A DNA stretch of 64,000 nt from the NCBI GenBank assembly GCA_039545335.1, contig BCIN01000009.1, forward strand, positions 310,001 to 374,000, in the 5' to 3' direction. The notes beneath the pieces are model-generated. The model saw nothing but the letters and a program-made list of their open reading frames with translations. It searched no databases and was not told where the DNA came from. Both the position numbers and the translations under genes were made by a program. Shown here one piece after another: positions 51,691-64,000 of this stretch (the first letter of the stretch is position 1; every line of letters starts with the position of its first letter). Origin of the DNA: Kondoa subrosea. Its lineage: Eukaryota.

Positions 51691-55656
<3,966 letters not shown>

Positions 55657-55726: not shown

Positions 55727-55738
55727 AAAAAAAAAAAA
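55727..55738 (-). terminator. Pol III terminator (T12) downstream of the tRNA
   Basis: Twelve A on the plus strand, separated by 2 nt from the discriminator base. Confidence 0.8.
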
Positions 55739-55740
55739 CT

Positions 55741-55869
55741 AGATCTCAGCGATGGTCGAAATCGCGATCTTCAGCTCTCTCAGGCCGGAAACTGACTGCT
55801 ATGCAACTCAACTGATGTCACACAAGGCGCGGACATCCACGTACCGCCGTACCACTTGGCCATGAGACC
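55741..55869 (-). tRNA. tRNA-Arg(CCG) interrupted by a 49-nt GT-AG intron (55844-55796) and an 8-nt 37/38 intron (55784-55777)
   Basis: Spliced sequence: GGTCTCA TG GCCAAGTGGTACGGC G TCAGT TTCCGGA GCTGA AGATC GCGAT TTCGACC ATCGC TGAGATC T. All four stems pair; A-box TGGCCAAGTGG. Confidence 0.85.
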
Positions 55870-56347
55870 GATTTGCCACAGAAACGTCTGGCGAGACGTC
55901 ATGTCATATATAAAACTTGTAGCCAAATTTTGTAAGACAAATTAACAGCTTGAGCTCTGGGCGCCAGACTGGGTGCGCCAAAAGGGCGCGGTGATGGGCG
56001 CGGAGCGAGGGTTACTCTTGTATAGTAACAGTCGGCTGCAGCTGACTGTGAAGCTTATTGAGAACCTCATATCATCATTTCATCGTTGTGCAATGCGGAT
56101 TGGACTGTGAGAGCTGCAGTAGCTAGCCTAATGCAGTGAATCAGTAACCGTTATTTCAGCGCGCATGACCTAATTTGGTTGCACCGCGGTCAGTGCGAGA
56201 TTTTTGGCGACCAATGTTTTGAAACTCAAGAGCCATTCAGCGACTCCGGAATTGTGTGGACACATACAGTCTGGATACCCTTTGATAAGGCTGCTATTGC
56301 AGACTCTGTGCTCTGCCGCATTCTTAATTCTTCGGGCGAAATCCACA

Positions 56348-61195: not shown

Positions 61196-64000
61196 ATGAA
61201 TCAAAGCAATATAGCAGGCAGTAATCAGTACCCTGGCAATGCTTACAATTATGGCTACGATGCAACGAATCAGCCTAGCTCGATGCCCTTCACTTCGCAA
61301 GCCATGGCAGGACCGTCTTATCGCACTGCAAGTCCATTTCAGCCGAATCATCAGAACCCTACCCAGGCAGGATCGCCCTACGGATACCACACAACGTCTA
61401 GACCAGCCTCTGCTATGAGTAATCCTGCTTATACTGCTCAGCAAGGCTATCCTAGTCAAAGTCCTGTGAATCAGCAAGATATGCAACAGCAGGTGTTTCA
61501 ACAGCAGTATCCCGTTCAATCAGCATATTCCGGTCAACAGCAACAAAGTTGGCAGCAAGACAATGCTCGTAGTCATCCTCGGCAAACTTCTGGCAGCTTT
61601 CCTGCTTCTATGGCTGCTTCCCCAGCTCTGGCCAATAGCCCTTATAATCCATCTACTGGTATACCAGCTCGCCCGCCTAGTGTGGCGAGATCAGAGAAGT
61701 CTTATTCCTCGCCTGCTTTACCTCATTCTGCTTTACCTCCAAGAGTTCAGCAACAGCAAATGAACGGTTACGCTCCTCAACAAGCCTACACTCAGCCGAA
61801 TTATCAAATGCAACAACAGCAACAGCTTAGGCAGTATCAAATGCAGCAACAGAGTGTCTACCAGAACCAGCAAATGATGCCTCCTCAGGCTCAACCAGTT
61901 TACCATAATCAAAATCAACAGAGTCCACCGAAGAGACAAGCTAGCCTTCCTCAAAGTGCACCGAACAATGCGGCTGCTCAACCTCGACTGCCTGACGAAC
62001 AAGTCGTTCAAGCATTACAACACTTCCTTCAGCAGGCAAATATTCAAATGACTTCTTTGCCTGCTGTCGAAGGCCATCAAGTCGATATTGTGCTGCTATA
62101 CAAGCTTGTTCAATTCCATGGAGGAGGACAGATGGTCTCCAACAAGCATCTTTGGGACACGGTAATCAATCAGATGCGAATTTTTCCCGACAGCGGACCC
62201 AACTCGCAGGAGCGTCTGAATGCCGTTGTACAAGTGTGTTGCATGTGACAGTCGCCTTTAAGATTACTGACTGCTACTAGATCTACCGAACCTATCTGCT
62301 TCAATTCGAGCACTACGTTCGGCAGCGTCTGATGAACCAAGCTTCAATTGGGCAAGGCGGACAACAGCCACAAATGCAACAGCAGCAGCCGCAACAAGTC
62401 AGGCCTCAGATTCAGCAGAATACACCAAACAATCCAGCTTACACTCAACCACCTCCTCCTGCTTTAGCTCAAGCTGCAACACCCATTGCTCCGCCTATAC
62501 AATCGCCTCATGTTCGTGTACCTTCACAAACTCAGCAGCAGCAGCAACAACAACAACAAAGACCTGCCTCTGCTACCAATCAAGTTCTCACCGAACCTTC
62601 AGCGACTTCACAGATGCCTGAACCTACTATGGCCGTACCTTTGATGCCAGCTCAACGACAAGTTTCACCTCCTGCTCCTTCTCCTGTCAGGTCACCTCTT
62701 CGAACGAACGGTGTAGCATCACCAGCTAAAGAAGAACCAGTGGAAGAGAAATTTGAAGAAGAAGATGAGGAAGAGGACGATAGTGTAGCTACAAACTATA
62801 TAAATGGTTTGGTCGCTTCTGTAAGTCAAGATTTGCCTTCGCCTAAAAGAGAAGAACCAGTAGCATCTACTTCGAAACTGAAGCCGGAAGAAGAGGGTGT
62901 AAAGCGGCGGAAGCAAAAGATTATATATCAACCGTTGAAGAGGAAGATTGACACCTACGGTGGATTGGCACCAACGGAGATTGATGAAGCAGTGCGATAT
63001 GTGGAATCGAAAAAGCGGAAACGTACAAAGAATGATATTGGTGAGTTGCGCCTATACAAATGAAGCTCAAGCTCATGGGTAAATTAGGGACTCTCGATGT
63101 CAACGCTACTATTCTATCGCTCCAATCCGGTTTACCGACTGAAGTCACTTATGCTCTCAATTCCTTGTCTATCGTTTCAGAAGCCTGCAGAACGGCTGAA
63201 TCACCAAATGGCTGCAAGTTCCCTCTAGCTGAATGTGGAGAGCTTCTCGACACACTGTTTAATCTGGTAGAAGAGGCAGCTTTTCCCGCTACAATTCAAG
63301 AAGTACCATCTGCGAATCAATCCAAGTCAAGTACGGCAGCGCAACCTTCATCTTACCGGGAACTCTACCTATTTGCTATGGCTGACAACAAGCTTCGTCA
63401 ACGCAATAGAAGACAACAAGTTGCAGCTCTTCCTCGCTCGCACATTCTTCTAAATATCCTTTGCACGCTTCGAAATTTCGCGGCATCTCTGGACAACTCG
63501 GGTACCATCTATGCTCACCCTCGTTTTATTGGCCTCCTGCTACGACTTATCAGCTCTTCGGCCCCTCTTTCACCTTCAACGGATCTAGATTGGTCCGATA
63601 TCCTCACAATTAAGAAAGATGTGCTGGTCATGCTAGCTGATGTTGGTGCAGAGCAAGACCTAGGTTGCAATTTTACCCCAGCCCAAGTGAGCGACCTTTG
63701 GCAGTTCCTCCACTTCTTTCTGGGGGAGCATTCAGCATACGATGATCCGCTACAAACCAATTCCAGCAATTCTATGGCTATCACTATTGGACATATTGGC
63801 ATATACGCAGATCTGGCACTGTCCATCCTCATCAAACTCGGTGCAGCCGATCAGAATCGAACAGTTTTGGCAGCTACTTTACCTCGAGCGGAAATTCTGG
63901 TCGATATTTACGACACACTTTTACGACTTTTACCCAGCACAGCCGATGATCTCGCGATGCTCCAAACACCTTATGATAATTTAGGCGTTACTTTGGAAAG
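61196..64000 (+). CDS. SWI1: SWI/SNF subunit Swi1/Sol1-like ARID protein, 3' partial
   Basis: Q/P-rich N-terminus, ARID (VDIVLLYKLVQFHGG..VS..HLW), YQPLKRKIDTYGG, LSLQSGLPTEVTYALN. Confidence 0.82.

Follow-up and report, generated by a model that had tools for sequence, protein, structure and literature searches.

The minus strand of the window (the whole 64,000-nucleotide stretch of DNA that was analysed) carries a tRNA-like gene of 129 nt, delimited by reading of the sequence, in which a 5′, a middle and a 3′ exon are separated by an insert of 49 nt and by a second piece of 8 nt (Table 1). The insert opens with GTACGTGG and closes with GCATAGCAG, its 3′ end reading CATAGCAG, and the 3′ end of the tRNA is followed by AG and then by the T12 run. 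The neighbouring gene, located on the plus strand at ~51.9-55.65 kb, encodes C1-tetrahydrofolate synthase; its protein model shares 77% identity with one protein and ~75% with two proteins from Microbotryomycetes (Pucciniomycotina), and the host appears to be a basidiomycete-like fungus; among named organisms, Pucciniomycotina hold the nearest relatives of this gene. The 5′ flank of the tRNA is intergenic up to the next plus-strand gene (~56.5 kb), and a coding-exon reading of the locus was rejected, as no minus-strand ORF of more than 53 codons crosses it. The locus is unique in the 64-kb window, where no second copy was found. Two DNA runs of one sample, which is possibly the source itself, were identical to the sequence at the locus, which is not independent support, and these two runs contained neither variants nor a joined (spliced-out) form.

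Table 1. Features of the interrupted tRNA-like gene and its flanks, in window coordinates
Feature	Position	Strand	Remarks
TATATAT element	55906..55912	-	37-43 nt 5′ of the tRNA start; possible TBP/TFIIIB site, a role judged from the letters
tRNA-like gene, 129 nt	55869..55741	-	
5′ exon, tRNA positions 1-26, 25 nt	55845..55869	-	GGTCTCA acceptor 5′ strand, U8, D arm, G26 (ARAGORN drawing); layout GGTCTCA-TG-GCC-AAGTGGTAC-GGC-G
A box, TGGCCAAGTGG	55862..55852	-	inside the 5′ exon; matches the pattern TRGCNNA(N1-2)GG
49-nt GT..AG insert, positions 26/27	55796..55844	-	GTACGT donor, tandem TAG-CAG acceptor
Middle exon, 11 nt, TCAGTTTCCGG	55785..55795	-	TCAGT anticodon-stem 5′ strand, U32, U33, CCG, G37
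Anticodon CCG	55788..55786	-	
8-nt piece, CCTGAGAG, between G37 and A38	55777..55784	-	candidate canonical tRNA intron
3′ exon, positions 38-73, 36 nt	55741..55776	-	A38, GCTGA anticodon-stem 3′ strand, variable loop AGATC, T arm, TGAGATC acceptor 3′ strand, U73
T arm, GCGAT-TTCGACC-ATCGC	55765..55749	-	carries U53-A61
T12 run	55727..55738	-	starts 3 nt past the tRNA end; Pol III terminator-like

ARAGORN found no tRNA gene in the native 64-kb window, with or without its intron mode, and the native window gave no Rfam match at the gathering threshold; a search of the locus, or of its 3′ part alone, gave no Rfam tRNA match at E values up to 10. For the surroundings of the locus and for its 3′ part, Rfam gave only snoRNA and miRNA matches (E 6.9-8.3), which were dismissed as chance. 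A cytoplasmic class-I cloverleaf was obtained only once both the 49 nt and the 8 nt were removed, whereupon ARAGORN called a tRNA-Arg(CCG) of 72 nt, class I, with a score of 108.7 and stems pairing at 7/7, 3/4, 5/5 and 5/5 positions. In this edited tRNA the acceptor stem has 7 bp and the anticodon and T stems have 5 bp each, while the anticodon loop counts 7 nt and the variable loop 5 nt; apart from the G53-C61 pair, the conserved bases are in place (U8, A14, G18-G19, G26, U33, G37, T54-T55-C56 and A58, with a G15/C48 pair).

The call was set against two controls for chance. In the first, all 42,431 segments of 35-120 nt with GT..AG borders, taken from both strands of the window, were deleted one at a time and every product was submitted to ARAGORN; three variants were called as tRNAs, all of them from the tRNA-Arg(CCG) locus. 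In the second, 705,692 double deletions per locus were made at 12 random loci and at the tRNA locus, and ARAGORN called 19,643 of the 705,692 at the tRNA locus and 0 of 705,692 at each of the 12 random loci. Chance is thus ruled out as the source of the call, and the assignment of the locus as a tRNA gene is solid. The borders of the two pieces are less firm than the tRNA nature of the locus. Other deletion pairs reached scores of 112-113 and, because such rivals gain from extra pairs that the program rewards, ARAGORN scores cannot fix the borders. What sets the 49 + 8 nt solution apart is its canonical geometry, in which position 26 is a single nucleotide, the anticodon stem has 5 bp, and the anticodon and variable loops have 7 and 5 nt; this solution exists in two equivalent registers because a G stands before both junctions.

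Three features of the tRNA are odd: U53-A61 stands where G53-C61 is expected, the base at 73 is U (U73), and A13.C22 is a mismatch. G53-C61 is nearly invariant among cytoplasmic tRNAs. The U53-A61 pair is a two-sided change that keeps the pairing, which argues for constraint on the RNA; as a non-canonical pair it may also mean that the gene is a dead copy. Outside the window, a scan of a prokaryote genome collection with the 25-nt 5′ exon gave 0 matches, and a metagenome scan with a 22-mer from the variable loop and T arm gave a single match, in GC-rich, coding-like bacterial DNA lacking tRNA features, which was set aside as chance. The DNA around that match contains a Walker A motif, as judged by eye.

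The letters around the anticodon are those given in the initial annotation, with TT-CCG-G-CCTGAGAG at 55790..55777 followed by A-GCTGA at 55776..55771 (minus strand), and the spacing of 11 nt that it gave between the GT..AG acceptor and the 8-nt piece equals the length of the exon at 55795..55785. Its placement of the 8 nt at 37/38 was also borne out, as they fall exactly between G37 and A38 in the sole parse that yields a canonical class-I cloverleaf, the 72-nt tRNA-Arg(CCG). The label of a minimal intron did not survive comparison with other tRNA genes. According to PMC4090602, predicted canonical tRNA introns of eukaryotes span 6-133 nt and 132 of the 143 tRNA genes of the basidiomycete yeast Cryptococcus neoformans contain a canonical intron, so that 8 nt is unremarkable. 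The piece thus has both the position (37/38) and a length (within 6-133 nt) of a canonical tRNA intron.

Structure prediction proved neutral on excision of the 8 nt. An anticodon-intron helix can be drawn, with U32.G(-3), U33-A and C34-G pairs and a 3-nt bulge (A-G-A38) at the 3′ site, at a predicted -19.5 kcal/mol; RNAfold favours a lengthened anticodon stem (U32-A38, U33.G) at -22.3 kcal/mol, and the open loop is predicted at -18.6 kcal/mol. The piece resembles canonical introns removed by the tRNA splicing endonuclease (TSEN) in its 37/38 site, its length, and the drawable U32.G(-3) pair and 3-nt bulge at the 3′ site, whereas it differs from them in that a more stable predicted fold hides the 3′ site and in that its host gene has a second, unrelated interruption. 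Judged by its position and length, it is most likely an ordinary, if short, canonical tRNA intron of a tRNA-Arg(CCG) gene or of the relic of one.

The unusual part of the locus is the 49-nt insert, which is statistically intron-like; the 8-nt piece would be ordinary on its own. Local introns were defined by spliced alignment of two homologues (P0008 and P0031) to the neighbouring gene, which gave 17 introns common to both. These introns are 46-65 nt long (46-50 nt in 10 of the 17); G occupies position -1 in 13/17 and position +5 in 13/17, the 3′ end is CAG in 13 and TAG in 4, and a CTGAN motif lies 8-25 nt before the 3′ end in 11/17. The insert, with its 49 nt and its borders G|GTACGT...GCAG|T, shares these splice-site, length and branch features, with a weaker branch motif: its GTACG start is also found in 2 of the 17 local introns, and its branch-like motifs TTGAG and GTGAC, 12 and 22 nt before the end, belong to a weaker class (TTGAN/GTGAN) found in 4 of the 17. 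Its removal between GT and AG borders restores the host sequence and leaves G26 as the one nucleotide that separates the D stem from the anticodon stem.

A crude intron score, the sum of donor, acceptor and branch components with leave-one-out scoring for the 17 real introns, placed the insert at or above 6 of the 17. Among the 127,902 49-mers of the window, 537 had GT..AG borders and 31 scored as high as the insert, a conservative count that includes real introns of other genes; when all GT..AG segments of 46-65 nt were considered, 370 of 10,067 scored as high. A random insertion would rarely look so intron-like, even with several borders being acceptable. The likeness to the 17 local introns, the GT..AG borders and the 31 of 127,902 49-mers that score as well lend support to the initial annotation of the insert as a spliceosomal-type GT-AG intron.

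The tandem TAGCAG acceptor was likewise present as had been described, and with the TCAG beyond it three AGs stand in series (TAG, CAG, TCAG). Because of these three successive AGs, precise choice of the acceptor would be critical, imprecise splicing being expected to damage the tRNA. The initial annotation had held that use of the first AG would add 3 nt and break the spacing of the cloverleaf; the 3 nt were indeed added and the D arm was distorted, but the product was still called a tRNA (75 nt), with a score of 105.1 relative to 108.7 for the CAG acceptor.

In its promoter and terminator features the gene looks to be of the Pol III type, having an A box, a T arm and a terminator-like T12. 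This T12 is the sole A/T homopolymer of at least 9 bases in the 64-kb window, and of the 4 T arms found there (5-bp stem, TTCRANN loop) only the one at the tRNA locus has a run of at least four T within 40 nt downstream. The B box keeps TTCGA and C56 and lacks G53 and C61. No T4 run is present inside the 129-nt gene, insert included, whereas 4 of the 17 local introns have one.

The reading that we tentatively favour, from sequence features, is a live Pol III-type tRNA-Arg(CCG) gene that is interrupted twice, by an 8-nt TSEN intron and by a 49-nt U2-type GT-AG intron, the type that abounds in the protein genes of this genome, with a separate splicing machinery acting on each. That the gene yields a functional nuclear tRNA which depends on the spliceosome, acting on a Pol III transcript at 26/27, as well as on the tRNA splicing endonuclease at 37/38, seems less likely than not. 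In the proposed pathway Pol III would produce a precursor of ~140 nt, and the nuclear spliceosome would excise the 49 nt with CAG as the acceptor, so that the hinge formed by the D stem, G26 and the anticodon stem is restored. End processing and export of the tRNA would follow, and TSEN, which measures from the folded tRNA body, would then remove the 8 nt and the tRNA ligase rejoin the halves. Features that speak against a live gene of this kind are the weaker-class branch motifs, the three AGs, and the predicted preference for the anticodon-stem extension (-22.3 vs -19.5 kcal/mol).

The 49 nt would probably have been gained by reverse splicing or a related insertion, as has been proposed for fungal U6 genes. 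No direct repeats of at least 8 nt were found in the locus. The hexamers GGTACG and TCAGTT each occur in 2 copies there at differing offsets, and ~2 repeated 6-mers are expected by chance in 129 nt by our own estimate.

Purely by inference, the spliceosome would act first and TSEN second. The argument from the TSEN ruler is a reasonable one, given that the insert lies where the D stem and the anticodon stem meet, and the premise of the initial annotation that the enzyme measures from the tRNA body is textbook knowledge (PMC4090602). Predicted folding does not itself force this order, because the precursor can keep its cloverleaf: with all cloverleaf helices imposed, the full 129 nt fold at -39.1 kcal/mol relative to a minimum free energy of -40.4 kcal/mol, the insert forming hairpins of its own. 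The fold of the native 129 nt is otherwise ordinary (z-score 0.04). The spliceosome is a nuclear machinery. In budding yeast, the endonuclease is located on the mitochondrial surface and tRNA splicing is cytoplasmic (PMC4090602). This difference in compartment would argue for that order independently of the ruler: should TSEN of this fungus be cytoplasmic like that of budding yeast, compartment and not folding would decide which piece is removed first.

Quite possible, if short of probable, is that the locus is a dead or dying tRNA-Arg(CCG) copy which kept the 8-nt intron of its family and was struck by a 49-nt insertion where its D and anticodon stems meet, the insertion being derived from an intron or only resembling one; a transcript, if there is any, would not be matured, and CGG would be read by another CCG copy or by a UCG tRNA. 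The replacement of G53-C61 by U53-A61, with the weak B box it leaves, is consistent with decay of this kind, as are U73 and the A13.C22 mismatch, the moderate ARAGORN score (108.7) obtained even after editing, and the lack of an Rfam match for the native sequence. Loss of such a gene might also be tolerated: CGG accounts for 1 of the 42 Arg codons in the neighbouring gene, and because the codon is so rare there a CCG tRNA copy could be dispensable. According to PMC4090602, insertions in the D and T arms of eukaryotic tRNA genes are for the most part seen as marks of pseudogenes, and the locus resembles these in having an insertion beside the D arm and in departing from G53-C61. No spliceosomal (mRNA-type) intron in a tRNA gene was found in the literature, in a search that most subscription journals lay outside and that is no proof of absence.

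The locus differs from tRNA pseudogenes in that its stems all pair, its promoter and terminator signals are intact, and the precise GT..AG borders of the insert restore canonical geometry on removal. Decay is further opposed by the compensated nature of U53-A61, by the intact A box, TATA element and terminator, and by the lack of a T4 run in the insert. A random 49-mer would resemble a local intron so closely in only ~2.4 of 10,000 cases and, if the insert came from reverse splicing, it would have been spliceable on arrival. Were the gene dead, the locus would be a curiosity, a tRNA pseudogene with an intron-like insertion.

An improbable alternative is that the tRNA is embedded in a Pol II transcript, for example a non-coding RNA from a divergent promoter region at ~55.9-56.5 kb, with the 49 nt spliced co-transcriptionally; RNase P and RNase Z would then free the tRNA, which TSEN would complete. 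Such a transcript would account for the match of the insert to introns of Pol II genes and would fit the normal tie of spliceosomal splicing to Pol II RNAs, as stated in the introductory part of PMC8527467, and the intergenic 5′ flank of the tRNA, up to ~56.5 kb, would leave room for it. It is opposed by the Pol III signature at the gene itself, with its A box and T arm and a T12 lying 3 nt downstream that is the sole run of its kind in 64 kb, and nothing found at the locus, a minus-strand ORF included, points to a Pol II gene.

Very improbable is a reading in which one machinery removes both pieces, the 49 nt being a non-canonical tRNA intron cut by the tRNA splicing endonuclease. Fungal tRNA splicing endonucleases are described as ruler-type enzymes acting at 37/38, which speaks against their cutting at 26/27. 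No bulge-helix-bulge (BHB) was found at the insert, its central 4-bp helix having 1/4 pairs, or 2/4 in a register shifted by 1 nt, and both the GT..AG borders and the likeness to local introns would have to be coincidence. Precedent comes from a red alga and from nucleomorphs, in which some tRNA genes carry two or three introns of the endonuclease type away from the canonical site (PMC4090602, PMC3728597). The tRNA genes of Cyanidioschyzon merolae and of cryptophyte and chlorarachniophyte nucleomorphs, as covered in PMC4090602, resemble the present gene in having two interruptions, one of them away from 37/38; they differ in that their introns, of 3-24 nt or similar, are BHB-dependent substrates of the endonuclease, whereas the insert here is without a BHB and looks spliceosomal.

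Barely credible is a different parse in which the 8 nt are not an intron, the product being either an RNA of 80 nt, whose loop counts 8 nt and whose variable region is lengthened, or, after removal of TCCGGC (6 nt) at 31/32, a tRNA with a GAG anticodon. With the 49 nt alone removed, ARAGORN did call a tRNA-?(tccg) of 80 nt (score 100.5) and in intron mode preferred a Leu(GAG) with a 6-nt intron at 31/32 (score 101.3), and explicit removal of the 6 nt scored up to 112.8. Leu tRNAs of the cytoplasm belong, as a rule, to class II and have a long variable arm, so that a Leu tRNA with a variable loop of 5 nt is implausible; 31/32 is not known as a site of eukaryotic tRNA introns, and Arg(CCG) alone combines canonical geometry with a canonical intron position, the G37 beside CCG fitting an Arg-CCG tRNA.

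If the twice-interrupted gene is live, two unrelated splicing systems would act on the same small RNA, and tRNAs would join the short list of non-Pol II genes with spliceosomal introns (U6, other snRNAs, rRNA). The 49-nt insert would then mark the first report of a spliceosomal intron from a tRNA gene, and the gene would offer a natural test both of spliceosome action on a Pol III tRNA precursor and of the order of nuclear and possibly cytoplasmic steps. Finders of eukaryotic tRNA genes take no account of interruptions of this kind; such genes would be missed by tRNAscan-SE because that program seeks non-canonical introns only in archaea (PMC8450103). Isoacceptors that appear to be missing in intron-rich fungi could be genes interrupted in this way, and more of them are perhaps hidden in Pucciniomycotina-like fungi.

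The closest known systems are other small structured RNA genes. PMC5855946 describes the single U6 gene of Schizosaccharomyces pombe, transcribed by Pol III, whose intron is removed by the spliceosome, and reports spliceosomal introns in many fungal U6 genes, in rRNA genes, and in U1, U2 and U5 of Rhodotorula hasegawae. Rhodotorula hasegawae belongs to Pucciniomycotina. The present locus resembles the fungal U6 and R. hasegawae snRNA genes in having a short putative GT..AG intron, with canonical 5′, branch and 3′ sequences, in a small structured RNA gene with Pol III features, in a Pucciniomycotina-like lineage. [quoted passage not shown] A further comparison is provided by the rRNA genes of lichen-forming ascomycetes: a 57-nt spliceosomal intron from lichen rDNA was spliced from Pol I transcripts in budding yeast, as reported in PMC8527467. 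The two cases are alike in placing a spliceosomal-type intron in a non-Pol II gene, and they differ in the polymerase, the host RNA and the fungal phylum.

The boundaries of the 49-nt insert in the putative tRNA-Arg(CCG) gene are not the only ones compatible with a GT start and an AG end, as these also fit the entire 68-nt stretch made up of the insert, the 11-nt middle exon and the 8-nt candidate canonical tRNA intron (49 + 11 + 8 nt). Together with an additional AG located 4 nt inside the middle exon (TCAG), this places several candidate cryptic acceptors within 30 nt, as read from the sequence. Any of these acceptors, if used, would result in nucleotides of the anticodon arm being lost or gained.

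The hexamer GGTACG is present twice, with one copy occupying D-loop/D-stem positions 18-23 and the other spanning the 5′ junction of the insert, and TCAGTT is likewise present twice, with one copy inside the insert and the other at the beginning of the middle exon. Repeats this short are expected by chance and the offsets of the two pairs are unequal; therefore, these repeats at the tRNA locus are not evidence for a duplication as the origin of the insert.

The tRNA gene is convergent with a C1-tetrahydrofolate synthase gene containing 17-18 very short introns (46-77 nt), and approximately 74 nt separate the stop codon of the latter from the A12/T12 run. Due to this spacing and the convergent orientation, antisense overlap between the 3′ UTR of the synthase gene and the tRNA gene is probable. 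Across the 64-kb window, there is just one run of at least 8 bases for each of A and T.

Features at and around the tRNA locus (window coordinates)
Feature	Position	Strand	Remark
C1-tetrahydrofolate synthase gene	51874-55653	+	938-aa model
A/T homopolymer run (A12/T12)	55727-55738		sole A/T run of at least 9 bases in the 64-kb window
GT..AG stretch	55777-55844	-	68 nt
GGTACG copies	55845-55852 and 55840-55845	-	8 nt apart
Glutamine-rich ORF	61196-62248	+	350 aa listed

The sole metagenome match of a 22-mer query covering the variable loop and T arm (L001, positions 501-522) is unrelated to the tRNA. It lies in GC-rich, bacterial-looking coding sequence, in which a Walker A-like motif (GENGAGKST) was read by eye. 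Elsewhere in the window, the long glutamine-rich ORF is of low complexity.
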